Assembly (NCBI GenBank): GCA_905178155.1
Contig: CAJINV010000002.1
Coordinates: 6,974,743 to 7,038,742 of the forward strand
Reading direction: 5' to 3'
DNA: 64,000 bases
Source of the DNA: Amoebophrya sp. A120
Lineage: Eukaryota; Protista; Dinoflagellata
The position numbers were made by a program, and so were the translations under genes. Every line of letters starts with the position of its first letter. Within the stretch, counting starts at the first letter, position 1. A model generated the notes under the pieces. It had not been told where the DNA came from, made no database searches, and saw nothing but the letters and a program-made list of their open reading frames with translations. Of the stretch, positions 12,201 to 64,000 are shown piece by piece.

Positions 12201-15200
12201 CCGAGGCTGATGCGAAGGAACAGCAGGGCTCACCAGATGAGGAAGTTGGTGTCAACTTTAGCGGGCCTATGCGCCCTGTTGCGTCCACAACGACCACATC
12301 AGCCGAGGTAACACCATACCCTCCGTTCGTGCGGCAGAATGGTGCAGCGGGATCGTTTGCAAAACATCACGTAGATGCAGAAGCTGCATCGTCCCCGGTT
12401 AAAGTTAAAGCAACGCCGAGACCGCAGCCTGGCGCCCAGGAAGATGTTGCAATGCCACCAGCACGACGAGGACTCACGCCTGAAACATCAGAGGCTCCTG
12501 GTCGATTTGGTTCCCCTGCAGAAGACAGTACTGGTAGGATCAGTAGTACAAGTACTAATTCTAATGTCGCGACGACCACTGGTGGTCCGCGAGATGCAGA
12601 TCCAACGGACGAGACAGCAGAAGACCCGTCTTTGAAACGGCCAGCAGTGCAAGAAGATCCGAGCAGTCAGCAACATCAGTTGCACTTTTTCGCCGTTCCA
12701 AAGAGCGCTGCGAAACCTGCTGTGGCGGGTGGATTGCCGTTAGCTGGAGGATTAGGGTCTTCGCTGCTTGCGCCACCGCGTTGCACGTCGAGCCCCAGCT
12801 CCCGCCCGTCTCGCACGCGCACCGGCAGTAGCAGTCGCGCCAGGCCGGGGAGCAGCAGTGGCAGTAGCAGCAGCCGTGGTGGTGCGAGCTGCGACGCCAT
12901 TCCGGAAGAGGGGCCCTACGAGGGTGGCCAGGATAACTACGAGACCTTTCCGTCAGTGCCGCCAAGTGGGTTTCTCGAGAAGCTGTATCCGAAGTGGATC
13001 GACGCCATTGCGGACGAGAAGAAGGATATGGCAGAAAAGCATTGTGTAAAGCGTAACTTTGTGCTGTAGACGCTGTTGCAAGATAGTTAGAGTTACTCAA
13101 TTGATGTGATGCTGGACATGAGTGGTCACTCATAGACTAGCTCCTTGCGTGTTTTTTTCACGTTCTGCCTGCGCATGAGGTGCGGTGCCATGCCAGACAG
13201 ATTTGTCATGCTGTTTTCCCAGAAGAGTTACACTAACACAGTTTTTTTCCTTGATAAAGCAGCCAGACGAATGGACGAAGCAGGCCTTCCGCTACCTCGA
13301 TTACCACGGTTGGCCCGCGGGCAGTTTCATGGCCACTATGAAGATCTCCGCGAAGATGGATCTGAAGCCCCGCGACAGAACCACAAACACCGGAGGTCCG
13401 GAAAGCTTTCCCAGCCCGATATTGGTGGAGATGAAGGAGCCCGTCGTACCCCAGAGAAAAATGTCCGCTGACGGCATGATTCGCAACGCGAAAGCCTCGG
13501 AAATTGCGGCCTCCTACGCATGCGGTCGGCCGCAAGATGTTAAGGGAGCTCCTGCAGCGAGCACGGGCACGGCTGCGGCAGCAGGGACGTCGAGGACGAA
13601 CATCAAGCGTGATATTACAGGTTCATCAACAGCACCATCTTCGGCTCTAAGTAGCATATCCTCCAAAACGGCTGCGGAAGCTGCACTAGCTGCGTTCAGT
13701 TGTTGCGGTGTGCGGGAAGAGAGAAAGGACGTGGCAATGAAAGAGGGAGCGTCCAGTGTCCTACAACAAGCTACCGGGGTAGATGGAAGCGGAAGGGTAC
13801 TAGAAGTAGAAGCGAATTATGGTGCTGACTTGGATGGGCTCGCGGGGGCTCTTAGCGCAATGAACCTCGATCACGAGGAAGGAGCTTTGGTGGATGCTGA
13901 TGAGCAACCTGGCGTTCTAACCGAAATCCAGCTTCCGCCGGCAGCAGTCCCAGTCGGATCTTACACGACCAAGAACATAGATATTGCACCGGACCACCAG
14001 CAAGACGCTTGCATGTCGCCAACATCGCAGCAGCATGATCTTGATCAGCAATTTCAAGCTCCTCTTGATGGAAGTAGAAGTAGATGTGGAACAGATGAAA
14101 CCAGTACTACAACAGAAACGGATTGCGACATGGATTGTGGTGCGTTATCGCCGACAGTAGTCTGCCACCAAGAAGAAGAGCAACAGAGTGCTGAGCTGCA
14201 ACACTATCGCAGGGAATTCATCATGCGTCGCGCATTCTACTGGCTTCTCCACTGGGGCAACACAGGAGCATTGCTGAAAGCAACTCCACCGAGCGACAAA
14301 GCAACAGGTGGCGTGGGCAGCAATCCAGGCGTGGAATTGCATCACAAAGACCAACAACTGCAGCAACCTGCGCAACCGTTATTGAATGTGAAGCGGAAAC
14401 GGTGGTGGAAGACAGAAATCGAGCTGGAAACCGCCGTCGAGGGATTCGAGAGCGACGACGACGAGACTGCCACTTCCGCGGGGGGGAAAAGAAGCGCACC
14501 GAAGCAGCCGGAAAAGTATCTTTTGCTCTGCTACGACGAGAACCCCAGTCAGTGCGAACAGGAGCATTTTGGGAACCGGAATAAAAGCGCGGTCGGCGGG
14601 AAACGACAACCGGCGAGTCCGGAACAAGGGCCGACACCAACCGCCTACGAAGCGAGAATGGGAGCTGGAGGATCGAGTACTTCTACACAGATGAAGACGT
14701 TTCTGGGAGCGAGTGGTATACATCATTCAAACTCTTTCTGTGAAAATTGTTCGCAGGAAGTAACCCTGAGCGGCTTTTTTTCTAGTCGTGCCGCGATGAT
14801 GAGTCACGGCGTTGTAAGTAGAAGTAGCCCGCCAATGCAAAAATAACTTCCACATCTTTTCTTGTGTCGTACATATACATTTCTTCAAGATCTTCAAGAG
14901 ACTCCTAATTTAAACTACAGGCTCAGGCGAGCATCGATTTTCCCAGCAGCAGAGGTCTTCCGGCCCTATCAAGGCGAAGCCCGGACTTCTGCGGGAGCTG
15001 AAGCACTGGAAGCTTTTCCAGGGAATGGAAGATTTGAACGCGAGATACTACCTGCCTTACCCAGTCAAGAATCGACCATCCAAAATGGCAGCACCGCAAG
15101 AGCGGCATCCCGGAGCTGGAGGTGGCTTAGGAGTAGAGCACGATGCTTCTACGACTTCTGCAGCTCTCCAACAACCTGCTTCCGACCAGGAACTCGGAGC

Positions 15201-15489
15201 GAGCGCCGCAAGTGGCAGCGGAGCAACGGCTGCTCGCGCCAACAAGCGAAAGGCACCCTCAGCTCCAGTGACCGCGCCGCCACGAGCGGTGTTTGCCCAA
15301 GGGCTTTCGAAGCCGGTCAAGGACAAGGTACTCGTCAAGTTTTTGTTTTTGGGCGACCCGGACGCAAGGCAGAAAAAACGCCTCAATGAGGACGTCAAGT
15401 GGCACTGGGCGAATCTACAGGACAAAATGAAAAACGACAAAATGACGGCTAGTACGATGGCTTGGGCAGGAGATGGCAAAGCGATGTAG
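9266..15489 (+). CDS. Large low-complexity hypothetical protein, 3 exons (~9266-13026, 13262-14715, 14921-15489)
   Basis: ORFs 9266, 13185 and 15025 join in frame after removing a TIR intron (13027-13261) and a GT-AG intron (14716-14920, phase 1); start codon uncertain; no recognisable domain. Confidence 0.7.
13027..13256. mobile_element. Introner-like TIR intron
   Basis: Left TATGGCAGAAAAGCATTGTGTAAAGCGTAACT vs right (revcomp) TATCAAGGAAAAAAACTGTGTTAGTGTAACT; DR AAGGA 13022-26 / AAGCA 13257-61; 235-nt removal restores frame. Confidence 0.75.
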
Positions 15490-22624: not shown

Positions 22625-22714
22625 TCAAATGCTAATGCAAAATGACTGCGATTTAGAAATGAATGCAAAATGAGTGGTGATTTTGTAATGGTCTGGAATC
22701 CAGAATCAGGTCGG

Positions 22715-23335: not shown

Positions 23336-23474
23336 GCAATCGGACTGTCCACTGCCTCCCAACTTGGTCGAAAGTGGACAGCTTTTGGCACTCATGCAAC
23401 ACAGATTTTTGCATTATTCGGAAGTAGCATGACAAGTTGCAATCTTCCAGACCCAGACATTTTTGCAATGCATA

Positions 23475-23990
23475 GAATAGGTGGTCGCGTGTTCACGCAG
23501 ACCTGCGATGAATTCCGCCAGTTTCGCTTTCATGGTGTCCGCGTCCAGCCAATATCAAATGGAAAAATGTCTGGGTCTGGAAGATTGTAAACTTGTCATG
23601 CTGCATTTGGATACTACGAAAATCTGTGTTGCATGAACAGTAGAAGAGGTCCAGTTTATTTTGCCACAGCGAGAGGGCAACATTTCTCATGCGGTAATAT
23701 AGGCATCAGGGAGACCTCACAAAATCTGTGATGCTATGGCATGCATCACAGACGTCAGGAGTCATGCAAAATGTGCATGACAGACCTTGCATCCTTCCAG
23801 ACCCAGACATATTTGCGTTTGATACCCAATCGCCGTCCGCAATTTCCTCGACTTTGTTCTTCAGGCCCTCCTCCCGTTTTTTGGCGCTGTCCACTTCCTT
23901 CTGCAACTGCGGCTTGTCGCACTGCTCCAGTGTGGAATCGCCTGTATTTTCCGGGTTGAATTGGCTTTCACAAGCAGATTTCCGAAACGC
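23475..23990 (-). pseudogene. Captured minus-strand fragment of another gene (two exons, with introners)
   Basis: Minus strand reads ...LEQCDKPQLQKEVDSAKKREEGLKNKVEEIADGDW|LDADTMKAKLAEFIAGLREHATTY after removing the 23553-23824 element; a second, truncated introner end lies at ~23445-23474; upper boundary approximate. Confidence 0.65.
23553..23824. mobile_element. Introner-like TIR intron (GTCTGGGTCTGGA family)
   Basis: TATCAAATGGAAAAATGTCTGGGTCTGGAAG ... CTTCCAGACCCAGACATATTTGCGTTTGATA; DR GCCAA/CCCAA; same TIR core as 61286-61539. Confidence 0.8.
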
Positions 23991-24649: not shown

Positions 24650-27600
24650 ATGTTTTCCAATCATAATCCGCCGGAGAAAGGCAGTGCTGGCACGTCGGCC
24701 GCTGCGCATCAACAGTGGCAGCAGGGGAACGCCACGTCTTCCGGCTTTTTTGGAACCACTTTGGTACATCGACCGGTCACCGCTGGAGGTCAATTCGCCA
24801 ATAATTATCCGAACGCAGTGAATGCGCATGCGAAGAATGCACCAAGCGTGCTCGCTCCCACCGTGACTTCGTCCAACGAAAGAGCCACGACCGTCGAGTC
24901 GGTCCATGAGGCGCTGGAGATTCAGATCCTTCGCGACCAAAAAACGGGTCGGCTTGGATCATTGCCTCCCAGCGCCAGCAGCACGACTTCTTCTAGCGCC
25001 ACGTCGTTGTATTCGAAAAATGTTGCGACCAAGAACCGTACTACAGGTGGTGCGAGCGCTGCTGCAAGCTTGGTCGTCGGTGGTGCTCAAAGAGGTTCCT
25101 ACTTCGATCTTCAGCAACAAGGACAACATCATGAAATAGACCACACCACAGAGACAGTAACTTCACCGCTCTACCGCCTATCGTATGACTCGACGGGGTG
25201 GATGAGAATTTTCAGGTGCCGGTTTGGTGACGATTTCAAAAAAACAAAAATAAAAACTTTCTATTTCCAGAGCTGACCCGGGCCCATCCCCACATGTTTT
25301 TGTGGTGTGTGTGGATGTGTAACGGGTTCGTTCCAAATATGGGCCGCGGGTGCGCTCATCCTAGGGTCAAGCCGCAGCGGTTTTGATTCTGGGTGTGTGT
25401 CCTGCCTTGTTGCGGGTTTTGGCGTCCTCCCCTTTAGGCGGGGTCGGCAAGCTTCGCTTCTCCTTTCGGCTTAGTGGGGGCACAGCATGTGCACAATCTT
25501 GCTCGGCGCGCAGGTTGACGGACCCGTGGTGTCTCCTTGCTGGTTGGTTGGTAGTCTCGTGACAGATGAGTGACGGTTTGTGGGAAGGATATTTGACGTT
25601 CCGGCGACGGTTTGTGACGGTTGTTTGACGGTTTGTGACGGTTTCGTCAGAAATTCCGCTAAAACGGAGCATACCATCGGGGAAGAAAAACTGTCACTAA
25701 CCAAATTGGAACCGCCTTCCAACTTGTGACGGTTCTGTCACCATTCCGTCAAATTGCGTCATTTCATTCTTGGGCTACCTGAGGGCCTACCTAGCTACTT
25801 ACCACCAAAGGCGCCCATGGGAAACGTCAGGCGGCAACCCAGAATATGGCCAACGTCCAGCCGTTGCGCGCCCCTGCGTTGGCTGGTGGGATGCCAGTCG
25901 TTGGGCATTTGGGGTTTGCCCTTTCGTCTTTTTGTGTTATGGGGGCCCACACAATTTTCAACGCGTGTGGCGACATGCGTGCACGCTCCCCAGGCAGACA
26001 CTGTCCTGGGGTAGGACCAATGGTGCTTCGCGGTGTGTTTCGCGGCATGGCTTTGCCGCCTATCGCCCGAAGCTATCGTAGTGCCGAGCCACAGTAAAAT
26101 TTTCGCTTTTCTTTTTTCAAAACGTCACGAAACCGTCAGACCATGTAACTCATCACGAGCCGTCAGGTTGAACTATCGGACATTCGCGTTTCGGGCCCGA
26201 TCCCGACTGCATTGATTCTGCTCGCGACCGAGCACGGCCCGCCCGGCGTCTTCTTTCACCGCAATACCGGCGTTGCCAGTGTGGCGATACAAGTCACCGA
26301 CGACAGCCAGGGCTTTTTCCCCTTCCTGAGCCGCGTCTCGGCTTTCCACGTCACCTGGGAAGCCCGCGCGAGGGACGCAGGACTGAAGACGAACCTTCCG
26401 GCGGGGGCGAATAGTACCAGTGCCGGTCGACTAAATGGAAGTTCGTCTTCCGGTGGTGGTCGCCAAATTATGAATGCGTCGAAGAACGTGGTTGGCGGTG
26501 CCGCTGCCATCCCGGCTATACCGCCAAAAAAATTGATCGAGGAACATCTGCCCATGGTTTTCGTCGGCCAGATCTTGGTTCTCAGAGACTGCAAATCCGA
26601 AATCAAAAAGCCGAGGTTCTGCAAACTCACCGCCGGGAGCTATCGGGTTCTGAGCCCGGTGGAAGAACAGGAGATTTTGAGAAATGAGGAGTCGACTGCA
26701 AGTGCTCCACTGAACGCGAACACCAGTAGGTCACTTTTCACTTCGCAAGAGCTTCACCGAATCCGAGAGTTGATTGCCTACCGCGGTTGTGTGTTGCGGA
26801 ATTCAAAAGACTCCGTGCACGCGGTTTACGGATACCTCCGGGACGACGACATTTATGCCAGTCTCAAAAAGACGGCGGCGAACATGTTTCGGCTGAGGCT
26901 GTTGACGAGAAGAAAATCAAGTAAATCGTCTCGGTGCTTGGGACTGTTGCAGAAAACATCACAGGGCGAGAATCGTCCACAACACGAGAGGAATGTCAAA
27001 CAGCAGCAGACAAATATTACCAGAAGCAAACTAATTATGGAGAGAAAAAAGTTTGTCACAGTCACTACCTTGCACTTGCAGGTTTTGCATTACAAATTCT
27101 TTCAGCATCACAGCTTTTCTTTGTATTGCAGAAACACTAGGGAAATCCCTTATGAAGTTTGGCTGTGATGCATTTTTACGCATGACAGAAAATTTTGTAT
27201 TGCAAAAATGCGCATGAGTGATCGTGACGAACTTTTTTTGTTTGATACTAATCGACATCAAATCGCGGCACGAAAACAACGACTTTTTTCTTTTGAAAAA
27301 TCTGGACCGAGCATCCCGAACCGGGGCCGTGGTAAGAGTCGTCGTCAACAATAGCAATAGCGGCGGTTCGGGTTCGGATAAAATCAACGCACTACAGACA
27401 GATCTTGTTTTGAGCAGCAGGCAATGTCAAGCGGTGGATACTGTATTCCAATCGACAACGGACCGCGTGACGCTCGTGCATCCGGACTTCTTTTGCGCGC
27501 AGCAGGAGCAGCAAAACAACTTGAGGTCGTACAGAAATGAACAACTGCAGCTGCACCACGACGAGAACCACGCCCCGCATCAAATAGTAAACTCAAGCGA

Positions 27601-29594: not shown

Positions 29595-32269
29595 ATGGGC
29601 GCCAAAAAGGGGGGAAAGGGGTCGTTCTCCTGGTCTAAGCGCGACCCAAATAAGCCGAGACTAACGGATGAAGAGAAGCGTGCCAAGGCGAAGATTCATT
29701 TGGAAGCCTTTCGGGCCGCAAAGCAAAACGGAAAATTTCCCGACAAGGACAATCCCGGGAGCTGCAATGCGAACCACGAATCGACCTCGGCACTGACCCA
29801 CAAAGAGAAGCTGAAATACGAGTATCAGGAAAAAGAGCAGCGGAAGGAAATGGTGAAGAACGCGATGCTGATTCAGGAAAAAAATCCTGATCTGCGGGTG
29901 CAGTCGGTTATATGGAAGTGTCAGAATCGAAATTGACAAAATCGAAAAACTTGTGATGCATAAGATCGATACCAGTTGGAGCCTCAGTTTGCAAGCGGCG
30001 CATGACAAATTTCGCGAGCACCCAAGTCCAGTCTGTCACGCTGTTTGGGTAAAGGAGACAGGTCCTGTCATGCTACAATGGCAGCGCATTGCATACTCCT
30101 AAACAGGCTTGCGATCGATCTCATTTGCCTGCTCCCCAATACAGGCCTCCAGTGCCCTGCATTTTATGCATCACAGATTTTTCGACTTTGTCGATTTCGA
30201 TCCTGACACATCCATGGGCTAACCACAATTCGCTGATGTTCGGGAAAAAGATGCAGCGTGATGGTGTTGATGACGACGAGGAAAGCGATGCTGAAGCTGG
30301 TGAAAACGACAGACATTTTCTCGGGTCAAAACGAAGTAGAGAGAATTCGTCTGAGGAAGAAGGTGGTGAAAATCGGCAGCAGCATTTCAGCAGCCGTGCG
30401 GCTACCGCGAGAATAAACATCAAAGATGATTTCAACGCGCAGCTTTGGGATGCGCATGCAAAATCTGCCAGCGCAAGCACTGCGAGGAGCGGGACAAAAG
30501 GAGCCGTCGCTCAGCAAGCAACGACAATGACCTCGACCGGGGCAACCGCTAAAATAAATTTGTCTTCTGCAACAGCAAGCAAACCGTCTGGCAGTTCATT
30601 TGAACAAGAGGAAAGGGAGTTTGCCGTGGCTTTGAATTGGCACGAGAACTTGGAATTTCTAGCGACGGCGGAGTTGGAGATTATGCGGCAGTATTTGGAA
30701 AATAGCAAAAGGCAACTGCAGAAAGCGGCGACGGACTTTGATAAGAAAGACCAGAGCGAAGACACAACCGCAACGACGCTGCAGTTTCCTCAGCTCGACG
30801 ACTACAATACGAGTTTGCTGAAGTTTTTAGTGAAAAAAAGGTTTAACTTGCAGGTTTTACCACCCGTGAAACAGTCTCTGGCAACCTCAAGGGTGACGAA
30901 TGACGTTGCAAGTAGGAGATGTGGGGGCATTCGCGTGAAAATTCCGTCGACCGTTTCCAATGCAGCGTTTGCTCCTTTCGGCCGACGGAGTGCTAGAACC
31001 GCTACTGATGCTGGCGACGAGAAGAGCAGCAGCAGTGCAACACTTTCCATGACCCTCCCTTCCATGTCTATCGTAGACCTGGTTTGCACCTCAACCGGCG
31101 CAGCGGAGGTGCCGATCACCATGGGAGTGGAGCAGACGTTTGCAGAGGAAAGATTAAGGCAGTTGCTGCGCATGACAAAGAACTCAACCAGAACTACTAG
31201 CAAGAGCGATCTGCTCTTCATCAGCGACACGATTTTCAAAAAGCATTACGAGGACAACGACAGCGACAGCAACTCTGACGAGAGCGATAGCGGTGAGAAT
31301 TTCATCGGCGGGCCACCGAAGAAATTGCTCCAAAACACCGCGAAAAGGAGGAGAGTGGATGATGAAAATTCTGCTGCGGGGGATACGGCTGGTAGAATAC
31401 AACACACCGCGTCCTCTACAACATCATCTGCTGTTGTCTTTCCGCACTACAACTTCGAGCGTTTTCGCGAACAGGAAGGCAAGTCGTGGAAGGAGAATTG
31501 GGCGACGGCGAAGTGGCCAAGCCTGAAACTGGACAACCGCGCCCAACCGATCGAGGTAGACACGATGAACGGGGCTGTTTTGTCCTTTCTCTTCACGCCG
31601 AGGGACTTCGCGAAGGAGAAAGAAGGGCTGGAACTCCTGCTGGAAAATTTTCCACCGAGGAGAAACGGTGGCGATTCCGATCTTCCTGCGAACACAGTGG
31701 GAGAGATTATGAAGATGAAACCCATCTCGCTGCGGTTGATCCGAACAGAGAACTTCAACAAGAGCAAGAAGAGAAGTCCCTGGAAGTTGAAGATGAAGGG
31801 GCTGCTGGAGAACATCGAGTATTGTATTGGGACTCAAAACAGCAAGTCACCACTGTTCTGGATGGAGAAGGAATTTGAGTTTTCGGAGAGCTCACAGCGG
31901 ATCTGGATCGCATTCCTGGACGGCTGCAAGGTGGTGGTGGGCACGTACCCAGGCCTGCTGCAAAATAAGATCGCGGAGTTCCAGGTGGTGAAACCGACGG
32001 AGGACGGAAGTAGTGAAGAGGGAGAAGTAGACGGGAACGATGGCACCAGCAACGGCGTTAGCATGACAAAAGTTCGATTCGGGTTTGTCGGTGGCGAGAA
32101 GGGAGGGCAGTCAATATTTGGCTTCGGGCGTGCAGTGCCGACTGTCACGAGTATCAGTCTGCAGCCCAGGAAGTTGACAGATTTGCTGTGGACGAACGTA
32201 GAAAAGGAAGTGCCGTCCAAAGATACGTCCGCTTTTCTGAATGCCAAAAGTGTGAATTTGAGTCTCTGA
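29595..32269 (+). CDS. Hypothetical protein, 2 exons (29595-29910, 30222-32269)
   Basis: ORFs 29595 and 30089 join in frame after removing 311 nt; Lys-rich N terminus; no confident domain. Confidence 0.75.
29911..30216. mobile_element. Introner-like TIR intron, 306-bp family
   Basis: ~50-bp TIR TATGGAAGTGTCAGAATCGAAATTGACAAAATCGAAAA...; DR GGTTA/GGCTA; colinear with 38125-38430. Confidence 0.9.
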
Positions 32270-47433: not shown

Positions 47434-50400
47434 ATGTCGTCCTCATCCGGGAGCGACTGCGACATCAATATGATCGAAGACTGGAAGATGTCCAATATTA
47501 CCGGACCGTGTGAAGAAGAGAAGTTCGAGAAAACGAGCAACACGCCTTTAAAACCGACCTACGACCAAACTTCCGACAGCGAAAAGGACGTCCAGGCCGC
47601 TTTTGCACAGAAAATGAACCAAATTTTGGCCAAGAAAAACCCAAACGGCACAACGACGCCGCCTGGGCTGGCAAACAAGTCGCCGAAATATTTCAGTATC
47701 AGCACACCGGCTGGAAAAGCGGAAGGTGGAGGAGGACAAGATCGCGATGAAAGCGTGGATCAGGTTCAGCAGACGGCGAAGGAGAGAAACAATACCGCTG
47801 TCCCTTCCGCCCAATCTGAAACTTTTCAACAATCACCAGAGCCGCTTTTTCAGCTGAAGAAAGTCGTCAAGAGAACGAGGCGAAAAAAAGCCAGTCCGCT
47901 GAACGTTGCCTCGCCACCTGGTTTATCCCGGAAGGAGAATTGCGAGCAAGCCACTAAAAGTGTCACGAATAAAGCTGCGGACGAGGAATTCTCCGCGGGG
48001 GAAGCGGAACAAAAGAAAGAGGAGAAGATCGCAGCAACCATTACGAACCAGAGCGAAACCAATCAAACACACGAGAAACTCGATCGTGTGGCGTCACCAG
48101 AGTTAGGCGACCGAGCGGAGCAGGTGAGTGTGGAGCTAAAAAAAGAAGGCCACATCCCAGCTGAAAAAAATTTGATCGAGATCGTCGACCAAGCCGGAGT
48201 GCAAGTCACATCTTCGGAAGGCCCTGAGGCCTCGAGCCCCTCTTCGAATACCGGAAATTGTCCTAGCGATGCACATGTGGATCAGGCAGTGGAGCCAGCG
48301 ACGGGCTCGTCTGCGGCGCTGAATCCGATGCCAGCAGCCTCCTTGAATGCGGAGAGATCATATCAGGGAAACTTCGGGCTGCTGGATTGCGTGGTGGGAC
48401 GTGCGATGCTGGGTTATTTGCTCTACTTCTTTCGGCATCTTCTATCATCAATGGAAGAGATTTGGATTTAAACGAATTTGCTTCATCTTCTCCGTGCGAA
48501 TTTTGTAGGACTGCACGAAGGAGAGCGTGAGTGTGTAAAAGTTGCAGCTTTATTTCGTTCATTCAAGAATGCACTAGCTACGCGAAACTTAGGTTTAACA
48601 ACATTCAGCATAGAAGCGACGAGAGAGCAGGACCAAACTTACGCAAAAGTGAGCTCGTCGTCGAGGAGAATGACGGACTCAAAGTGCCGCTGCTCCCCAG
48701 AACTGCTGTTTCAAATGAGTTTAATGTGCTCGCGAATGATAAAAGAGTTGAATGCAGATGCAAATTTGCCATAGATTTTCTTGCTTGACGCAAGCATGTC
48801 AACAAGCGCACTATGTCGATTTCGAGCGCACATGCGTTGAAGCAGCAGCTCTGAAGTCCATTTTTTTTTGAAGCCTCTTACAACTGGTAAAAGACAAAAA
48901 TTATACTTGATCTTACCCTCTGCACGTCGTCCGACCACGTGCGATCACCAGCCCGCTCGCTTTTTCCTTTCCACTACCCGACCTCCTTTCCCACCGTGAC
49001 CTCCTCCGCCAACCTCGACATTATGGAGGCGGAGCACAAGTACCGGGAGCTGAGCGAGCAGAAGTCGCTGGAGGCTATGCAGACCGAGGAGGAGGTATCC
49101 ACAGAAAAAAAACCATCCACATCCATTTTTTGCATGACAAACACATGACTTGCTCCGTGTTCTTTTGCATGACAGATTGGATGCGGATGGGTTTTTTTCT
49201 GTGGATAGGAAGAGAAGTTGGCGGAGCAGGAGTTGGAAAAGGTCCGGAAAATGCAAGAGGAACTGGAGAACAAGATGCAAAAACTCCGCGAGTCCGCGGA
49301 ACGGAAGAAGTTGGAGGCGGCCACCGCGGCGAAGGAGGCCGATCGGCTGAGGGAGGAGCAGGAGTTGAAGCGGAAGAAAGAGTTGGAAGAGTTGGAATTG
49401 CAGCGGAAACTGGAAGAAGAATTGAAAGAGAAGAAGCGGCAGGAAGCGATTTTAGCGAGACAGAAGGAACTGGAGGCGAAAAAAGCAAAATTTGCGCAGA
49501 AGTTTTTTGAAGACATGAAGGCGAAATTTGCAGCGGAGGTGGAAAAATTTGAGGAGGAAATCGAGGAGACCTCTGAAGCCGTTTTGGCCGAAGAAGAAGT
49601 CCAGGAATCACAGGAGAAGAAACATGCTTCACTCACCAGCACCTCTTCTCCAAAACCAAAGCTGCATGAGGATCAAGAGAGTGCCAAAGTTGATGAAGAT
49701 GAACATGATCCCGCTGCGGCTACTGCTTCTGGTGTCAATGAAGCTGGTGTCGTGCGAGGCACGAGCACCAACAGCGCGGACAAACAGGCTGAGGACGACG
49801 TGGTCGATGCGGAAAATAAAAAGGACTCTCCTTCTGCCACCAAAAACGTCACACCGACGACGGAACAGGATGACCGCAATGAAACTCCTTCCTCCTCGAT
49901 CAACAAATCCACGGTGCAAAACCAAGCTGCTGCTGCAATTGGCAACAAGACTAGCGTTGATAATACCACTGCTGTTGTTGTTCCAATCGCAGATGTTGTT
50001 GACGAGAACAAGGAGGACCAAGTCGCTAGCTGTATCGCAAAGCTCGTCCATGAGCACTGGCAGGAGTATTTCAAAATCGCACCGAAAACCGTGATCGAGG
50101 AAAAGGTTGTCGTTATCAACGCGCCGCCCCCCGCTTCTCCACCGCCGGCGGATCACCGGAAAAATACCAATTATACTGCCGTGGAAATGCAAATTGTGCG
50201 GGAACGGTTGAAGGCCAGCGCGCGGCGGCAGCAGGGCGGTCATGGCGGGGGAAGGAAGGGTTTTGGGAAACAAGAAGCTGGCGCCAACAGTGCGTCTTCT
50301 TTTGTAGAGTCCCCAGCAGGTCCAGCAAGTAGTACACCGGGGGCGGCGCACAGCCAGCACGCAGTGTCGTGTTGGGACGGCATTGGGTATGGAACGAGCA

Positions 50401-53400
50401 ACCAGAACGGCTACTACAGCAGCAATACATCAACTCCTGGCAACTACGGGGGTTCTTTCTACGCAGAGTTTAATAACGGAGGCGCGACTAACAACCAGCT
50501 CCAGCACGGGGGTTCATGCAATTACTATGGGACTACAAATCAAGACCATGCTGGCTTCGGCGCGGCGTACGGGATCGGGCAGTCGATTAGCATGCGAACG
50601 GATCACTCGCATGTTCCCAGGCAGAACTTTGACAGCATGAACTACGGCACGACTTTTCCGCCCTCGAATTCTTTCAACCTGGATCTCCAGGCGCAACACA
50701 GTCCTTTGGATGAGCACCAGACCGGCGAGCAGTATAATGTGGGCCAGGAGGAGCAATTCGACTACGCTGCTGGTTGTGCCGCCACCGGGTCTGCGAAAAA
50801 AGAGCAGCCGAAATCCATTGACGAGTTAGTCACCGACATCATGTCGCCGCCGCCGGCGAAGAACAAAGGGGGTTTTGAAAAAGCGGAAGGAGTCCTCGCG
50901 GAAAAATCCGGGGAAGGCGGGGAGGATGAACAAGGTGCTTCAGTTTCTCTTGCGTACAAGTTGGCGCTGACGCACAATGAACAGGAAACTGCTTCTTTGG
51001 CGGGCCACCGCAATCGGAAGAACACCGACGGAACCGCCTCGCTCAACTCCGAGAACTGCACTCCCACCGGGACTGGCGAAATCAAGTACGAGCTGAGGAA
51101 TGGCCGAATGATGGCGGTTGACCGGGGCCACTATCGGGAACGAGAACGCGCCAGGGTCACAACCGGACGAGAAAAAGCTGCGGAGAGGAAGGAGCAGAAA
51201 GTTGATTGGGCGAGCAGCCAGGAGAGGGACCGTGGGGAGGACGAGACCGGGGTGTCGGAGGAGAAAGAGAAATTTGAGCACGATTGGGGTTCCTGGAAGA
51301 CCAAGCTCGATGGCTGGAAGCAGGGTAAGAAAGATGCTGACTGGACTTCTGGGAGCTGGAAGGATAGTGAAGACAAAGCCGCAACTTCTACCGCCGGTGC
51401 TGTTGGCCGCGACAACGAGAAACAGGAGCGGAAGGACACCTGGCAAGAAACCGCGAATGAGGATGAGGTCGATTGGAACACCGCGAAAGAGGCAGGGGTG
51501 AAGAAACAAGATGATTGGAAAAATGACAGCACGGCTGGTCGTCGTGACAACAAGGAGGTCAACGAGACGAATGAAGACTGGTGGGGCACCAGGTGGGAAA
51601 AGAAACCTTCCGATGAGCAGGGCAAAACAGCGACCGCGGAAAAACAAAAAGGCGATTGGGAGAAAGATTGGAACGTGAACGACGACACCACGAATAATGA
51701 CGGCGACAACACGAAATCCTCTTGGGCGTCAGACAAAAACAAGAAAACGACCTACGCCTGGGCCGAGGAGCAGAAGCTGGACGATGTCCAAGACAAGAAG
51801 GGCAAGGATAGCGGAAGGGATTGGTGGAAAAAGGATTATGGTGACTCATCCTCGTCTGCGGATAACGATACTACCAAGGCGGGCAAAAAGAAAGACAAGT
51901 GGTGGAAGGACGATAGTGGTGTTTGGCAGTGGGCGGGCGACGAACAAACGCAGGATGTCAGGTGGAAGATTGCTGAGAAAGAATACACCAAGGGCGACAC
52001 GACCTGCTTGATGAAGGCCGACCTGTACTCCACTGAGCAAGGTGCAGGTGAAGAAGAAAAAGTGCCGTCTTCTTCATCTGAAGATCACCAACCTGCTGAA
52101 GCTGAGACGAACCACTATGAGGGACAGCAGGTTTATTCCACCCCCGACGCCCGCCTCGTCGAAGAAAGTATCATCGACCCCGAGGCGGAGGCGGGCAATA
52201 GCACCACAACATCCAAAAAGTCAACTGCCGCTGCGGTCGTGAACATAACGCAGAACAACAAGCGGAACAAAAAACCCGTTTGCACCATCGACCCAAAATC
52301 GAAGAATAACACACAAATTGTCAGCAAGGAAGAGCTGAAAAACGACAGCGTGAAGATCAAATGGACCCCGAAGTTGAAGGAGACCGAGCACAACTACATC
52401 TTCAAACACTACTCCGATTTGGACCAGCAGCTCCCCGAGTGGCTGATCAACAACTTGAAACAGAAGTTCAACGAACCGATGCTGGTGCAGAAATACGCGT
52501 TGATTCCCGCTTTGTCCGGCGCGGACGTGACCGGTGTGGCGAAAACAGGCTCGGGGAAGACGGTCGCGTTTTTGATTCCGGGGCTGGTGTATCTGGAAAC
52601 GACCGGGTACAATCTGTATCACAGGAAAAAGTGTATAACGTTAACGGTTTTCATAGATTGCAAAAATGCATGACAAATTTTGCCTAGCATCAGCATGCAT
52701 GCTGTGCATGACAAATTTTGGCGCGTTTTGGGATGCGTATCTGCATCACGAATTCCGTTAACGTTAACACGACTTTTTCCTGTGATAACCTGTGGGACAT
52801 GGCGATGGTCTTGACCCCCACCCGGGAGCTGGCGCAACAGACCTGCCAGGTGTGCAAGCAGCTCGCCACGGGACCCAGATACAACGAAATGTACTTACAC
52901 TAAACCGATTTTTGCGAGAAACAATAGTGCTGTAGTTGCATGTCTTTTCATGTTTTTCGATTGGAGTTGTTTTTCACTTCCTGTTGCATTTTGAGAATGA
53001 AGATAACATCATCATCTCGACCTAATACGCACTTCCACTTGCAGCTGCAAACTTCCGAAACTAAATCAAACCCTATTAAAACAGTTGGCCCTGCCTCCTG
53101 GTGGGTGGCGAGAAGAAGAGCCGGCAGGGAGACGACTTAAAATGGTCCCGCTTCGTCATCGGCACGTGCGGCAGAGTGCGGGAATTCATGATCGAATCGC
53201 GGGAGTTAGACGTTTCCCGGTGCGGATTTCTAGCGATTGACGAAGCGGATAAAATGTTAGAGGACGGATTTCACGAAACCATCATCGAAATCTGTTCCCG
53301 GATCAAGGTCTCGAACCGGCAAACCATGTTCTTTTCCGCGACGTGGCCCCAGCACGTGGAGGGCTTGTCCCGGGCGATCTGCAACACGACGCCCTCGGCG

Positions 53401-55854
53401 AACAAAAAGAACGTCGGGAAGAACGCGCATTACCACGGATACAGCAGCTACAGGAACCAGAATTTTTCGGATTTTTCTCATGACAGCACTTCCAAAAATG
53501 CTGATCAGCACAACGACCAAGAACAAGATCAGCCACTACAGAAGCACTTGTTACTCAAGGTGGAGCAGGACGAGAATTCGGAACTCACCGTGGACGAACG
53601 GATCCAGCAGGAGGTGGTAGTTTGGACTGACCCACACTACGAGTACGAGGAGAAGAAGCGACAGCACATGATGAACTACATTTCCAAGGAGTTAGAGACT
53701 TACGGCCAGGACGCGAAGATCGTGGTTTTTATGAACGCGAAGAAGGACGTGGAGCTGGTAAAGCAGATGCTTATCGAGGAGTACAACGTGGACGTGGAGG
53801 ATGATTCGGACATTGAAATCGAAGAGGCAAACTGCCACGAGGGATTCGCGCAAAATAAAACCAATGATCTCGAGTTGGTGGATATTAACAGCGGTGGCCG
53901 GCGCAAGGAGGTTTTTCCGGCAGTCCACTTACCGGCGGTGGATAAAAACATGGTTGCAGACGAAAACGACGCTGCTGATGTAGTTGTCCCGGTGGTTGCT
54001 GAAGAAGATGTGAAGAAAGAAGCGCCGCCGGCCGCTCCTGTTGATGCGAGCTACGACATCGAGGCACTAAAGTGCGACTCCCCCTCTCCGGTTTTGGTCG
54101 AAGAGCCGGAAGAAGATGGTGACTCGGACGAGCAGGCTGAGAAACACGTGGTGGATTCTGGAAATAACGAAGGCCGATCTGTTTCATCTTCTACAGCAAA
54201 AGACTACAAGCCAGATGATGGTGATGGCCGCGAGCAAGGCCCCGGCGCTGCTAGCGATGATGCAGTTGCCCCGTCCAGAAGCTGCCCCAATAACGAAGAC
54301 GAACTACAGTCTGAAGTCTGCAAGACCGTGACGGACGTGGTGACGCAATCGCAGAAATCGTTGCAAAACTCCGCTGGGATTGTACATACGCCTGTTTCTG
54401 CGAAATCCTCGCTAAAGAACAGTGTTTCCACTGCGCAGCAGGACATGAATATGGAAGCACCCTGCTTGAATTCCTCCGCTGCCGGCCACCAACAAGAAAC
54501 GGACCAGAAGGCAGCTCGGGCCAAAGATGGTGATGCTGATAATGATGAAACTTCTGTTCTTGCCGCTTCCGCATATGACTATCCGCCAAGAAAAACGTGC
54601 ATCAGCAACAAATCGAAGAAGATGCAGATTGTCTCGATGACGGGCGACATGAAACACTACGAAAGAAAGGAATCCCTGGAGAAGTTCAAGAAAAAAAGGC
54701 ACTGCCAGATCATGGTCGCGACGGACTTGATCGCGCGCGGCTTGGACGTGCCGACGGTTACCCACGTCATCATCTACGAGTTCCAAACATTGGACAACTA
54801 CGTCCACCGAATCGGGCGTACCTGCCGCGGCCGCAATGAGCTATCTTCATCTACGGGAGGAGGAGGTAGTTTGTCTGGGAAAAGTTCTCTGACCAGCTCC
54901 CCAACAACGACACACCAGGATGTCGAGGTTGGGAGTTTGAACGGAACTAGTACGCAGTTGAACAACGTGAAGAACGGCAGTCCCGGTGCGGTGTCTCTCT
55001 GTAGTAGTTTGTCGACAAGGAATATCAACTTGCAACAGCAGCAGCAAGAAATCCAAATCAAAGACGGTGCTTCGAAAATCAACATCGACGGTGCGACAAC
55101 TTCTGCAAGCCATCAGCTGATACTGACGGCCACCAAGCGGGAGAAGCTATGGCGTTCTCAAATGTTACAATCTCAACTGTTACATGATTTGTCATGCAAA
55201 ATGACCATGATCCGCAAGACGATCAAGCTGCTTCGCATGACAAATCATCGAATGGCTAAACAGCATCTAAATCCGTGCCAAATTTGTGATGCAAGACTTG
55301 CAAGCTTTCCCCTTTCCCTATTGCTGGTTTTGCATGACAAATCCATGTAACACTAAACAGTTGAGAATGTAACAGTTGAGAACGCCATAGAAGGTTTCCA
55401 AAGCTTTGATCTACTTCCAGCACTATGACAAGTACCCGGAAAACGCTGGGAAGTTGAAAAACATGCTGGCCCAGGCGAAGCAGCCGGTACCGGAGGATCT
55501 GGAAAAATTGGCGAAGGAGCACGAGTATCCTGTGCACAAGTATCGTACTCGTGCTTGCGTATGCATTTGCAATATTGGATTAGCAAATCTTTTCTTCTTT
55601 TCGGAAAAGCAAAAGTCTATTGTAATGCAATGTCTACAACTAGTAGAAGTGGAACTAGGTGCGATAGAAGCGATACTTTTGAAATTCATAGCGAATCCTC
55701 GACGGGCTCGAGGAACAAATCCCGGTTTCAGATTTGGTGGGAACGCGAGGTGGTGGCGAAGTTTGCGAAGAACTGCGAGGAGGGCCTGTCGTTCTGGGAC
55801 CTGTACGACTTGGATGCGGAGGGACATGTGACGTTCACCGGGAATTCGTATTGA
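47434..55854 (+). CDS. DEAD-box RNA helicase (DBP2/DDX5-like core) with a very long N-terminal extension
   Basis: AKTGSGKT, PTRELA, GG, TCGR, DEAD, SAT, ATDLIARGLD, HRIGRT, and C-terminal LAQAKQPVPEDL. Introns: 49096, 52617, 52891-53084 (GT-AG), 55148, 55526. Linkage of 47434-48950 to the rest is unresolved. Confidence 0.8.
49096..49207. mobile_element. Introner-like TIR intron (flanking Gs give GT-AG)
   Basis: TATCCACAGAAAAAAAACCATCCACATCC vs revcomp TATCCACAGAAAAAAACCCATCCGCATCC; DR GGAGG/GGAAG. Confidence 0.9.
52617..52787. mobile_element. Introner-like TIR intron
   Basis: TATCACAGGAAAAAGT...TAACGTTAACGG inverted at both ends; DR ATCTG/ACCTG; join GYNL|WDMAMVLTPTRELA. Confidence 0.9.
55148..55389. 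mobile_element. Introner-like TIR intron (ATCTCAAATGTTACA family)
   Basis: TATGGCGTTCTCAAATGTTACAATCTCAACTGTT vs revcomp with 2 mismatches; DR GAAGC/GAAGG; in-frame join. Confidence 0.9.
55526..55690. mobile_element. Introner-like TIR intron, same family as 36122 and 62959 but in reverse orientation
   Basis: Starts TATCCTGTGCACAAGTATCGTACTCG, ends CGATACTTTTGAAATTCATA; DR ACGAG/GCGAA; in frame with the last exon. Confidence 0.7.
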
Positions 55855-59531: not shown

Positions 59532-61753
59532 ATGCCCGCAGCGGACGACGATATTGATCCGACGCACCACGGTGGTATCACCGTAGAGGTCGAGCGATGC
59601 AGGGATTGCGGCAATCACCAGTGGTGCAGCAACCACCGCGAGGAGCAGTACGAAGAATACGAGGAGAAAGTCAAATCTGCAATTCTGACGAAATTGGCCG
59701 GCGGTCCCGACATCCGGATCGAGGTGAACCCCGGTCCGAAGGCGATCGGTATGTGTAGATTTTGCTTTTTTCCTAATCGAAGTTTGTGATGCGAGAAATC
59801 GAGGAGGCAAGCGAAGCTGCCATTTTCATTTTGAGTAACAGGCGGAACCAAAAAAAGAAATGACGCGCCGTCCTTACATCATTCTGTTCTCCTCGCGCCA
59901 GGTATGGACGTCCGCGAGTCGCAGCACAAGAAGGGTTTTTTCCAAGCGATGGTGAAGAACCCGATTAACAACAAGTACCTTCCGGACGTGTCCTTCTGTT
60001 ACCCCCGGATCGGTTCCTTCGAGGTCACGGTGATGCGCGGGGGCGTCAGGAACAACCCGACGAGGTCCATTGTCTTCAGCAAGTTAAAGGCGAAGCGGTG
60101 GCCGAACCCGGAGTGGGTCGCGGAAAAGGTGGTGGAGGTGGTGAACAACAAACTCGGCGGCTTCGGACCGGACAGCTCGCTTGCCATGTCGCCAAACCTG
60201 AACAAGAGGTTGCCGAAGACGACCGAAGAGCTGATCAAATACGTGATGGAGAAGTACTTCTCCATGCTGTCTGCCTTCCGCGAGTACGACGGCAACAGCG
60301 ACGGGCTGTTGACGAAAACCGAGTTCGTGGACGCGCTGCGGTCCTGCGGGCTGGAGCAATTGACGAAGGGGGAGATCGCGAAGTTGTGGCAGATGGCGGA
60401 CGGCAAGACAGAGGTCGATTTAGCGACCGGGGAGCTTGTGTCGAAGATGTCGCACCGGCACTTTGGCCGCGTGTTTGAGCGGTTTCTGCCGCACCACGAG
60501 CATTTTGTCGGGTTGAGTCCGAAATCCTTGAAGTCGACGAGAACACCCGGTGGCATGGGAGGAAGCTCGTCCCCAAGCACAAGGAAAAATTCAGGTACAT
60601 CACGAGCGAACGACTTATTTGGATTTTTTGTGTTGCACGATTATAATTATCTTAGAGATTGACCCGCTCCATCTTTTATCTCTTTGGGTTGTTTTCGCAT
60701 ATCGATGTCGTATCCTGTTCCCCGATCATCAAATTCAAAACCACATTATCAATATCTAACACCAGACGGCATCCTCGGGCAAGAGGGGGCTCACGCCCAG
60801 GACCTGATTGACGACGTGGTGCTCGGTTCGCACCCACTGAGCCCGAAGAACTCCCGGCCGAGCAGCCCGAAAATCGTCCGTCGCGGGAGCAGCAACTCCA
60901 GAGCCTCACTGGCGGGCCACAAGCCGTCGATTTCCCAGTTGTCCCGAATGAAAGAAGTGCAGGACATGCCGCTGGAGCAGTGCACGCCGGACTTGATTTA
61001 TCCCACGAAAAAAGTGTTACAGTTACACATTTGTTGTCAATTCAGCAGCACAAATTTCTCTGCATGAGAGAAAACTTGCAATGCAGAAATCCTAAGGGAA
61101 AACGCCTATGAAACTACGAAGCTCCTATGCATATCCGACATGACAGAGCTGGTCTGTCTTGCTTGGCCTGCAACACAATGTGTAACTGTAGCACTTTTTT
61201 TCTTGCGATATGATTCGGGCGAAGATTTTGGCGAGAACGGGGTCGTTGACGAACGCGTTCAAGCAATTTGACGAGAACGGGGACGTATGAACTGCAAAAG
61301 TGTCTGGGTCTGGATGAAGAATGCAGGTGTGTCATGCTTGTCTGGCATGACTTGAGAATTTGTGTTGCATAGGCACGAAAAGGCCTTCTTACCTGTCATG
61401 CAAAAACGCAGTTTGCCATGCGGAATACGTAAGACATGGCAGCCAAAAAATTTGTCATGCATAGCTCCGTATTGCAGTGCGTCTATCATTCACTTTTAGC
61501 ATTACAAGTTTCCAGACCCAGACATATTTGCAATGCATAGGACGGACAGATCAACGCGGACGAGTTTGAAAGGCGGATGCCGTTTGTGCTGGGGGTGAAA
61601 TCCGTGCCAGACCGGGTCATGGAGGACTTGTTCGAAACCTTCGACAAGGATTTGTCGGGCAAGATCGAACTGAACGAGTTCCTGTCCGAAGAGTGCTTCA
61701 CCGACGCGCACGCACTGCAGCAGAAGTTTCTGCAGCAGTTTGTCATGTCGTAA
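59532..61753 (+). CDS. Rdx (SelT/SelW/SelH-like) domain plus EF-hand protein, 5 exons
   Basis: EVERCRDC, PRIGSFEV, VFSKLKAKRWPN; EF loops DGNSDGLLTKTE, DENGDGQINADE, DKDLSGKIELNE; GT-AG introns 59749-59901 and 60595-60765 plus two TIR introns. Confidence 0.8.
60999..61210. mobile_element. Introner-like TIR intron
   Basis: TATCCCACGAAAAAAGTGTTACAGTTACACATTTGTTG vs revcomp TATCGCAAGAAAAAAAGTGCTACAGTTACACATTGTGTTG; perfect DR TGATT. Confidence 0.9.
61286..61539. mobile_element. Introner-like TIR intron (GTCTGGGTCTGGA family) inside an EF-hand loop
   Basis: 29-bp TIR, 25/29 matching; perfect DR GGACG. Confidence 0.9.
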
Positions 61754-62379
61754 CAACGCCGCGTAAGGAAGATAACCATTGGTCTTGTGATGTGCCAGAA
61801 GTTCTTCAGAGTATGCTCGTCGTGCTCTTTCCGCAGGTTGTCGCGGAGGTCAGCTTGACAGATTGACTTCATAGATGACAGTTTGACTTTACGTTTGCTG
61901 CTTCAATGAGTTTCAATTTTAGCATTAGCAATGTTAGATTTGGTATAGCTTGTCACAATTTCACTTTCACACAGCCTTTTTGTCGTTTCGCAATCATCGT
62001 AGGTATGTCGTAGAATTTTTCACTTTTTCTGGTAGATTTTGCACAAACAAATTTCAATTTACACTTTTATCAACAGTTGGCATCCGTTTCGTTCGAGGAG
62101 TAAAAAAACTGGTTTGTAAAATATGCATATTGGCGCACTTGAATTTAGATTTACATTAGACAAAGAAATCCACTTCAACAGTTTTCTCTATTGGGCTTGT
62201 TGTTTCAGATGAGATTATCTTCATCATGTATACCATTGAACAAAAACTTCGAAAACAATCTTCACTGGAGCTGTGTACGTAACCAGCAAGGCAGCTTGCT
62301 CGCCTCTCCGCACGCAACTAGGTGTTTGCTTTTTGATGTCAGTACTGGAAGGATCAGATAGCTGGTCATACGAATCCGG

Positions 62380-64000
62380 TTGTATGCATATGCTACACAA
62401 ACACAAGCACAAGTGCTCACCCGAGAGAAGTACAAGGAGCGAGCTTACAACAATTTCAATTTGATGGGCCACCATCAACTACCTGGTCGTGCTTCTTTTT
62501 TGTGCGTCAACCAATATGATCCCCAGCATGTTGCCCATCACGTGCAAGAAACTGGCCTAAGAAGCGCCGTCCCATAACAACATCAACAAGATGATGGAAG
62601 CTGCGTCCTGGGGTCTCCGCATGGCGGAGGAGCGCCGTGACCGTTTGAAGTCTTTTGATTTCCGGAAACAGGTGGAGCTGGACTACAACATCGAGTGCGA
62701 GAAACATTTAATCCCGCAACTCGACCAGTTGCTCATTGCTTTCGGGGGGATAGGCGGAGGCGGTACATCCAATGGGCCTTCACTCACAGCCGGTGGGTCC
62801 TTCCATTCCGACCCACAGCAAAACCTCAACCCGCTGCTGCAAAACCCGCGAGTGCGGGAGTGGACGGAAACTTTGATCAATTTTCTCGTCCGCGCCAACA
62901 TCGACATCGCTTTTCAAGTGATTGAAGAAGACCTCACGTATTGTAAGATCATGGAACATATGCATTGCAAAAGTATCGTGCTCGTACTAATTGCAGATAT
63001 GCATGACAAATTCAATTTTCTACCTGAAATAGCATGACAAATTCAATTTTTTTCTTTGGAAAATTATTTGTAATGCATTTTATACTAGTACGATACTCTT
63101 GCACAGGATAGAACAACAATTGAGGGAGACCATCGAGCACTTGATCGCGTTACAAACGGAGTACTTCAAGGAGATTTCGTCTCTCAGGAACAAATACCTG
63201 CAGCAGTTGGACGAAAAAGCGAACATTTTCAACCCGGAAAAGTTCAACAACGAGGAGCAGTTGTACGTCCAGGAGATGGCCGAAGCGTGGAAAGCGTTAC
63301 CGGATTTCGAGAAGCACCGGGCACTGTTCCTGGATCCGAAGGAGGAGTGGCAGCAGCGGCTGAGGCCGTTATCGTTGCGGAATGACGACGAGAGCTCGCC
63401 GAACGGGGTTGGTGGTGGAGCGGGTGGGGCTGGAAGTCAAAAGAGTCTTCCTGTCCTCTCCAAACCCTACGAAGTCGACGCTTTGCCCTGGTTTTTCGAC
63501 GTGAACGGCGGGCATTTGGGGAAGAAAATTCAGGAGTTGTGCGCTCTCATGGTGGCGCACCGGGTGAAAGAGATACGAGCGCGGGATAAGGAAATGGAGG
63601 AGGCGGCGCGGAAGGCCAGGATGGCAAAGGACGACGAAGCGGTGCCTAGTTCGATGATGGACGAAAACTTGATGAAGGAAACACTGGAGGAGAACAAGTA
63701 TAAGTAACGGTTTTCGTTTTTTTATTGTGTTCTGTTCTGGTCCTGGTGTAGTTCTTTGTTCCGCTAAGAAAAGTACGTTTCTTTGTTGCATCTTTGTCGT
63801 CTCGGAGCTGCACATACGACAACAACTCACACCAAAAACAGGCGCCTCCAGAAGGAGAACCGAGAGCTCAAAGCGCAAAACGCAGACAAGGATGAGGAAA
63901 TTGCAAATTTGCAGAAGCTTCTGGAGGAACAGTCTAAAAGGATAGAAGAACTTTCCCTGGAAAACGAAGAGTTGAAGCAGAGCTCACGACGGAACTCGAC
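62380..64000 (+). CDS. Coiled-coil hypothetical protein, partial (runs off the window; 5' end uncertain)
   Basis: Joined by probable GT-AG introns 62486-62561 and 63698-63841 and TIR intron 62959-63110; heptad-like ENKRLQKENRELKAQN...LSLENEELKQ. Confidence 0.65.
62959..63110. mobile_element. Introner-like TIR intron (TATGCATTGC/TATCCTGTGC family)
   Basis: TATGCATTGCAAAAGTATCGTGCTCGTAC ... GTACGATACTCTTGCACAGGATA; perfect DR GAACA; join KIME|QQLRE. Confidence 0.9.

Follow-up and report, generated by a model that had tools for sequence, protein, structure and literature searches.

Introners of Amoebophrya sp. A120 likely obey one cutting rule without GT-AG ends

We analysed a window of 64,000 nt from Amoebophrya sp. 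A120 (contig CAJINV010000002.1; positions below are those of the window) that holds 15 complete introners, repeated elements that begin with TAT, mostly end in ATA, and lie with their terminal inverted repeats (TIRs) between 5-bp direct repeats (DRs). Transcript-like contigs lack these elements wherever the comparison could be made, while DNA-like contigs contain them. All introners likely obey one cutting rule that does without GT-AG ends and is workable in either orientation, and from the junctions we infer a fixed register, N-TAT...ATA-NNNN, which would always leave one DR in the mRNA. As the best explanation, at a probability of about 0.6, we propose that a modified major spliceosome uses N-TAT as a relaxed donor while the terminal stem sets the 3' cut 4 nt past ATA. 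The elements and much of their grammar are already in print, and the gain is a refinement rather than a discovery.

Removal from transcripts and retention in DNA

RNA and DNA contig sets were compared over 48001-64000, which contains seven of the 15 elements. Two sets, X1 and X4, were guessed to be RNA, and a third, X5, is DNA-like. X1 and X4 had zero depth over 57079-59214, where the depth of X5 was 46-48, and they skipped three GT-AG introns; for both reasons they behave as transcripts. An earlier note on this DNA, made by a model from the sequence alone, had proposed reading the exact junctions, and the transcript-like contigs skipped the element plus 5 nt at 7/7 elements. The contig pieces were directly adjacent across the skip at 49096 (117 nt) and 62959 (157 nt), and the other five skips were deduced from record coordinates: a skip of 370 nt corresponds to element 52617 (176) plus the GT-AG intron 52891-53084 (194), one of 417 nt to 55148 and 55526 together (247 + 170), and one of 476 nt to 60999 and 61286 together (217 + 259). 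The annotated protein P0007 (2000 aa, identical to the query exon) has the predicted residues at all four junctions of the DEAD-box gene, reading KREKVS at 55148 and EHESS at 55526. Use of nearby GT-AG sites would have spoken against the earlier note. At 49096, 55526 and 61286 a GT-AG choice 3 nt shorter would also keep the frame and is not what was observed: the options at 49096 are 114, 120 and 123 nt against 117 nt skipped, and the 167-nt option at 55526 differs from the annotated form (P0007, 170 nt skipped).

Evidence for the remaining elements was uneven, although the earlier note had the frame restored every time. Left in place, the elements would bring in stop codons or change the reading frame. 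For the three in the DUF445 gene (38125, 38498 and 39333), the orthologous protein P0001 of strain A25 is colinear across the junctions (79% match over a third of the query), and two more are covered by the proteins P0005 and P0006, named A120 and 100% identical to window exons. Removal of 27036 extends an open frame of 885 nt to 1977 nt. Together with the seven in transcript-like contigs, 13 elements are thus backed by contigs, A25 colinearity (3), A120 proteins (2) or continuity of an open reading frame (ORF; 1); removal is weakly supported for 36122 and 23553, the latter being without RNA or protein support.

On the DNA side, the listed X5 contigs entered each of the seven elements at 40-43x, the same as the flanks. 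Summed depth in element bins was 1,600-133,000 against about 45, as befits repeated families, and other genomic copies stopped matching exactly at TAT/ATA, with 63, 96 and 149 loose ends at 55148, 62959 and 61539. X5 is possibly the source of the assembly, and contigs conceal rare forms. An alternative, for which the earlier note had suggested a check of genomic reads, is that some life stage cuts the elements out of its DNA, transcripts then being made from the element-free DNA. Ciliate internal eliminated sequences have TA-like ends and a transposon origin, which the elements recall; rare variants are lost from Logan contigs, the joints inspected are 15 of 284, and the DNA-like run may represent any stage. 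However, the X5 contigs keep 7/7 elements at flank depth, none of the 15 joints seen skips a single element cleanly, and a second assembly, from metagenome loci, also retains the elements. We regard DNA excision as very improbable.

These metagenome loci were found with a TIR pattern from the 23553/61286 family, which matched at least about 790 stretches in the 10/64 parts of a metagenome collection that were scanned and was absent from the viral contigs searched. The related set analysed here comprises 181 loci (L001-L181; 517 kb, overlapping), and the 80 matches listed were all JACKZZ01 contigs. All 15 window elements have some relative in these loci, 13 of them over at least 70% of their length. 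As a form of the N5-TAT...ATA-N5 scan put forward in the earlier note, 285 unique TAT...ATA pairs were picked by TIR alone, with no DR criterion; 208 had a perfect 5-bp DR, 47 had one or two mismatches and 30 had three or more, and DR lengths of 3, 4 and 6-10 gave just 0-5 perfect cases. A coding model trained on the window and the 181 loci called both flanks of 99 elements. The flanks were called on the same strand in 77, of which 67 fit retention of exactly one DR, with the removed lengths distributed over all three phases.

The frame calls bear on a further alternative, namely that the skips are reverse-transcriptase artefacts and that the elements stay in the true mRNAs. Template-switch artefacts arise at hairpins with direct repeats on either side, the elements have this anatomy, and all RNA evidence is presumably based on cDNA. 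Nevertheless, the stops and frame shifts lie inside conserved domains colinear with the A25 orthologue, the 67/77 related insertions keep the frame only if removed, and removal also occurs at a DR with two mismatches, all of which leaves an artefact little credence.

Cut register, splice signals and orientation

The register is the DR base after which the cut falls, and six junctions are informative about it. The allowed cuts are 4 or 5 at 13027, 3, 4 or 5 at 29911, 4 or 5 at 49096, 2-5 at 52617, 0-4 at 55148 and 1-4 at 55526, and a cut after DR base 4 is the only register common to the six. P0005 reads KKEPD at 13027, and therefore the left DR base 4 is kept; P0006 reads QSVNH at 29911, and therefore the left DR base 3 is kept. 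Both results were obtained after the register rule had been noted. The DR of 38498 is uninformative because its mismatch is synonymous. Under register 4 the intron is N-TAT...ATA-NNNN and thus of the class NT-NN, and in Table S4 of Farhat et al. 2021 (PMC7789003) 9/9 predominant A120 non-canonical classes are NT-NN; register 4 puts the largest share of elements into these classes (0.165 against at most 0.097 for other registers). The nine predominant non-canonical classes given there for A25 are all TT-NN, and the inverted repeats (IRs) of A25 start with TTA; both features suggest that A25 has a comparable fixed register of its own.

Alternatively, the two DR copies might pair or slide against each other and place the cut at any point within the DR. 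The net product is always the element plus one DR, 19/31 DR mismatches lie at third codon positions, which could mean that both copies are constrained, and random cuts would leave six junctions with some common register 24% of the time. Against sliding, the DR of 55526 with 2/5 mismatches still gave removal of the element plus 5 nt, NT-NN dominates Table S4 (PMC7789003), and DR decay is close to the neutral expectation; the idea that selection maintains DR identity found no support, as the decay amounts to 4.2% per site where one unconstrained copy would give at most 5.7%. Sliding is therefore an improbable account, and distance from the element ends, rather than the DR, appears to place the cut. 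Of the earlier idea that both the terminal stem and the DR guide removal, the stem is supported and the DR is not. Folding z-scores ranged from -3.4 to -15.8 in 13/15 elements (30 base shuffles each) and were about 0 in three canonical introns, while the stems of 13027 (-0.5) and 55526 (-1.6) were weak and no better than shuffles.

No register of the element plus 5 nt gives GT-AG in any of the 15 window elements, where the earlier note had claimed this for most; GC-AG or GA-AG is possible in 3. In the related loci, a G at DR base 5, which would be intron position +1, occurred in 58/176 elements (p 0.63, no bias), and an AG at DR bases 3-4, the 3' end, in 12/176, again with no preference. It had also been claimed that removal is not guided by U1/U2 splice-site dinucleotides. 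The lack of dependence on G at +1 and on AG agrees with this, but the donor resembles a canonical one: the canonical introns examined in the window start with GTAY in 8/8 cases (3 from RNA, 4 from proteins, 1 from a frame reading), and the TAT of the elements matches +2..+4 of this donor, which makes a spliceosomal 5' site compatible. An asymmetry between the 5' and 3' ends in terminal conservation was sought and not seen. We also considered that the terminal A at -7 mimics the canonical branch point, as 6/8 window introns have it; the idea was dropped because the 37% among 35 noisy ab initio introns is near background.

The orientation of the elements was close to even within families. Over nine families the two orientations numbered 47:44, 9:9, 7:4, 4:5, 3:4, 4:3, 2:3, 3:1 and 3:1, ratios that noise in the strand calls could flatten. 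Of the same-family pairs within one open frame, 5/5 evaluable ones were in opposite orientation (59 pairs examined).

Anatomy, shared motif and mobiliser

All 15 elements were confirmed at the starts given in the earlier note, with lengths of 112-306 bp and TAT at every start; 13 end in ATA, the exceptions being 29911 (ATG) and 39333 (ACA), and, as claimed, the DRs are perfect at seven elements, differ by one base at seven others and by two bases at one (Table 1). Their TIRs span about 25-55 bp, and their GC content is 0.30-0.47 against 0.45-0.62 in the flanks. Four families recur in the window, 23553/61286, 29911/38125, 36122/62959 and 38498/55148. The elements have no coding capacity and, being short with TIRs and a fixed-length target-site duplication (TSD), resemble miniature inverted-repeat transposable elements (MITEs). 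The word strict, applied to this grammar before, slightly overstates it, since a relaxed-end search of the related loci found TAT at 531/550 element ends, a figure biased upward by the search itself, and something else at 19. A scan for the grammar with a TIR of at least 20/30 recovered 12/15 elements, where 30 resampled windows gave a mean of 0.03 and never more than 1, and one with at least 16/30 recovered 14/15 and one extra pair against 3.2 by chance. The TIR scores of 13027 and 52617 are only 16, and 55526 was missed by the ungapped scan. A weak TAT...ATA pair at 17979-18101 (TIR 17/30) is at chance level in the relaxed scan and was left uncounted. An Rfam search of the window gave no match.

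The list of 15 was not the whole inventory, as a 16th element, truncated and with one end, lies at 23340-23474; its partner end was not found in the window. It abuts a short segment repeated at ~22560, 24390, 25160 and 26170, and the ORFs 22053-22673 and 24647-25276 resemble duplicates. The repeated segment and the duplicate-looking ORFs suggest that a local rearrangement broke the minus-strand gene containing 23553. The strand of 23553 was deduced from the ORF and an upstream ACAG acceptor, and its host gene is probably a fragment.

Table 1 Introners and motif-bearing canonical introns in the window
Feature	Position	Strand	DR (left/right)	Remarks
Introner, 230 bp	13027..13256	+	AAGGA/AAGCA	Weak stem; inferred intron 13026-13260; A120 protein P0005
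Truncated element, one end only	23340..23474	-		Same family as 23553 and 61286
Introner, 272 bp	23553..23824	-	TTGGG/TTGGC (minus strand)	TGTCTGGG family
Introner, 212 bp	27036..27247	+	CTAAT/CTAAT	ORF continuity
Introner, 306 bp	29911..30216	+	GGTTA/GGCTA	Ends ATG; family of 38125; A120 protein P0006
Introner, 145 bp	36122..36266	+	CGTTT/CGTTT	Family of 62959; ORF continuity alone, near stop codon
Introner, 306 bp	38125..38430	+	AAGCG/AAGCG	DUF445 gene; A25 orthologue P0001
Introner, 255 bp	38498..38752	+	GAAGC/GAAAC	DUF445 gene; family of 55148; colinear with P0001
Introner, 154 bp	39333..39486	+	TCGGG/TCGGG	Ends ACA; DUF445 gene; 53-codon gap against P0001-P0004
Introner, 112 bp	49096..49207	+	GGAGG/GGAAG	DEAD-box gene; 117 nt skipped (49095-49211 or 49096-49212)
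Introner, 171 bp	52617..52787	+	ATCTG/ACCTG	Inside DEAD domain; 176 nt skipped
Introner, 242 bp	55148..55389	+	GAAGC/GAAGG	247 nt skipped, right DR base 5 kept; P0007
Introner, 165 bp	55526..55690	+	ACGAG/GCGAA	Weak stem; 170 nt skipped; P0007
Introner, 212 bp	60999..61210	+	TGATT/TGATT	EF-hand gene; 217 nt skipped
Introner, 254 bp	61286..61539	+	GGACG/GGACG	TGTCTGGG family; EF-hand-like loop; 259 nt skipped
Introner, 152 bp	62959..63110	+	GAACA/GAACA	157 nt skipped
Canonical intron with motif	37887-38056
Canonical intron with motif	38918-39043
Canonical intron with motif	39831-39991
Canonical intron with motif	59749-59901
Canonical intron with motif	60595-60765

Across the families the elements share an internal motif, GCA[TA][GCT]ACA, which was picked by eye in the window. 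The 3,188 bases of the elements contain it 49 times and the other 60,812 window bases 22 times, and in the related loci it was present in 288/288 elements (14.7 per kb against 2.0). In non-seed families TAT (1.3%), the TIR core (3.2%) and the motif (3.3%) were more conserved than the interior (5.7%), a suggestive pattern that is confounded by the element-finding method and by selection on source copies. One motif copy also stands at +23 to +57 in 5/8 canonical GT-AG introns (0.39 expected in total); either part of the canonical introns descend from introners, or the motif could be a mark of introns as such. At the two element ends, bases 4-10 are often unpaired, both in the window and in L001-L181, and are drawn from a small common set, for example TATGCATTGC, TATCCTGTGC and TATCAAATGC, which recurs across families with different TIR cores and may reflect end swapping. 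Long single ORFs without a listed introner are found at 1451-5224 (amino acid transporter, PF01490) and 42546-44876 (M1 aminopeptidase, leukotriene A4 hydrolase type).

The same ends, the same TSD length and one internal motif across families make a single transposase common to all of them plausible. To this extent the one-transposase proposal of the earlier note holds; the long transposase-coding copy that it called for did not turn up in the sequences searched. Five long copies of 457-1104 bp with perfect DRs and unique cargo were found (L026:505-1608, L035:632-1465, L076:3862-4492, L075:571-1051 and L039:4314-4770), the first with GC-rich short repeats, and a Pfam search gave 0 matches in 97 ORFs taken from these five copies and from nine stretches behind unpaired ends.

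Machinery, known systems and meaning

We propose that the introners were spread in trans by one integrase-like transposase making a 5-bp staggered cut, and that a modified major spliceosome would cut the pre-mRNA one nucleotide upstream of TAT and four nucleotides downstream of ATA. The TAT of the element would act as +2..+4 of the usual GTAY donor with +1 relaxed, and the terminal RNA stem would join the ends, set the 3' cut by distance and replace recognition of AG. As TAT stands at both ends and the two ends pair, an insert could be spliced out whichever way it points and almost wherever it lands; this would account for exons having been invaded. The motif GCA[TA][GCT]ACA may be bound by the common transposase or by a protein that marks introns.

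Several observations weigh against this proposal. Of 183 elements, 4 depart from TAT at the 5' end and 8 at the 3' end, and there is accordingly no clear 5' asymmetry marking a donor. The chance of any common register among random cuts is the 24% given above, and that of register 4 specifically is 2%; a likelihood test on 31 DR mismatches gave a weak peak at 4 (+3.0) against 5 (+1.9); and three of the six junctions rest wholly or partly on annotated proteins that share the same RNA-seq. The Table S4 classes may reflect aligner conventions, CT-AC being the reverse complement of GT-AG. The RNA status of X1 and X4 was guessed, contigs conceal minor isoforms, and discordant flank strands in 22/99 elements mark the strand calls as noisy. 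No transposase match was obtained in the Pfam search above, and none is reported for A120 in the text of Farhat et al. 2021 (PMC7789003).

Alternatively, a non-spliceosomal nuclease and ligase, or a Euglena-like pathway, could read the stem, cut at -1/+4 and release linear or circular RNA. The absence of AG or G+1 bias, the orientation-blind insertion and the strong stems in 13/15 elements would fit such a pathway, as would the report that U1 was not found in A120 (PMC7789003) and the stem-defined introns of Euglena, for which the published text gives the machinery as unknown (PMC12501133). On the other hand, the inferred donor matches canonical GTAY at +2..+4, the two weak-stem elements 13027 and 55526 still appear to be removed, A120 keeps most of the spliceosome (PMC7789003), and the transposon-derived non-canonical introns described for Fritillaria are spliceosomal (PMC11282704, PMC13326754). 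We consider this pathway unlikely, and we hold a similarly doubtful view of its furthest form, in which special non-spliceosomal machinery, indifferent to orientation, would recognise the paired TAT/ATA ends of the stem in tens of thousands of introners and cut at the fixed offsets -1 and +4, perhaps with a protein binding the GCATGACA-type motif. If that were true, every insertion made by one transposase with 5-bp TSDs would be a perfect intron from the start.

The modified-spliceosome reading builds on published descriptions. As the earlier note stated, introners with IRs and DRs are known from Amoebophrya, although it understated what was in print, which includes the TAT start and concerns A120 itself. 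The text of Farhat et al. 2021 (PMC7789003) describes A120 IRs that start with TAT, followed by about 7 variable bases and at least 3 A, hairpins, and DRs that measure 3-5 nt, one example having 5 bp, and it counts 1,954 families with 29,850 members in A120. In the same text DR length is given as variable, splice sites are called 'variable' relative to the hairpin with no clear splicing signature, a general mobilisation by transposase is ruled out, and the spliceosome is largely present, with U1 not found. The window elements agree with this description in the TAT IR and A run, although some families (e.g. 29911, 55148) lack the A run, in a DR of 3-5 nt (5 bp in 255/285 related pairs with at most two mismatches), in their repeated families and in removal at non-GT-AG ends (7/7 in 48001-64000). 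They add to it a uniformly 5-bp TSD, one NT-NN register that fits the junctions, an orientation of about 50:50 and a motif common to families. The main text of that paper (PMC7789003; text only) gave no relevant wording on orientation, subterminal sequence or template switching, and register, orientation independence and shared motif were not found in the text consulted; figures 3 and S19-S25 may show part of them. Our literature search found no later mechanistic paper on Amoebophrya introners.

Gozashti et al. 2025 (PMC12130899) list 58 A120 families, one of which, fam38, carries the entry '5-bp TSD, TA/TA termini' and is referred to Ginger, with a TIR of about 50 bp and Copia/Gypsy-like ORFs; the entry covers one of the 58 families, and its likeness to the window elements lies in these described features. 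In the published descriptions, Ginger elements (Ginger1/Ginger2) have TGT...ACA ends and a TSD of mostly 4 bp, and TDD-4/5 a 5-bp TSD (PMC2836005), while GingerRoot has TA...TA ends, a 6-bp TSD and TIRs of 100-150 bp (PMC6839031). The introners differ from Ginger in their TAT ends, and they share TA...TA ends with GingerRoot but show 0/285 perfect 6-bp DRs and have shorter TIRs; the window elements, which encode nothing, fit neither group.

Introns of other lineages offer closer parallels in parts. As described for Fritillaria borealis (PMC11282704, PMC13326754), MITE-derived introns with TIR, TSD and non-GT-AG ends arose there by mass invasion, as here, and are removed by a modified U2 spliceosome with U1/U2AF paralogues, preferring AG-AC and AG-AT ends; the A120 elements have no 3' dinucleotide preference, and U1 is reported missing. 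Euglenid introns, according to the published accounts (PMC12501133, PMC11282704), likewise have stem-set ends at fixed offsets, TSD-like repeats and no GT-AG, but they follow the code 5'-N3CDG...CH'GN5-6|R in an unrelated lineage, whereas the A120 form is N-TAT...ATA-N4 with long family-specific TIRs and, under the inferred register, TAT/ATA at +2..+4 and -7..-5. The introners of Micromonas and Aureococcus are non-autonomous TIR transposons that made introns via the TSD, as here, and are described as carrying or co-opting canonical GY and AG sites (PMC9860276, PMC11282704), which the A120 elements do not. The elements also depart from U2-type spliceosomal introns in lacking GT(GC)-AG ends.

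Roughly 65% of Amoebophrya introns lack GT-AG, and the question of their splicing has been open since 2021. A single rule would replace 'highly variable splice sites' by one signature, settle ambiguous intron boundaries in their tens of thousands and make precise predictions that minigene, lariat and direct-RNA work could check. The alike ends suggest why a transposon could fill exons cheaply, as it would be spliced out in any orientation and at nearly any target.

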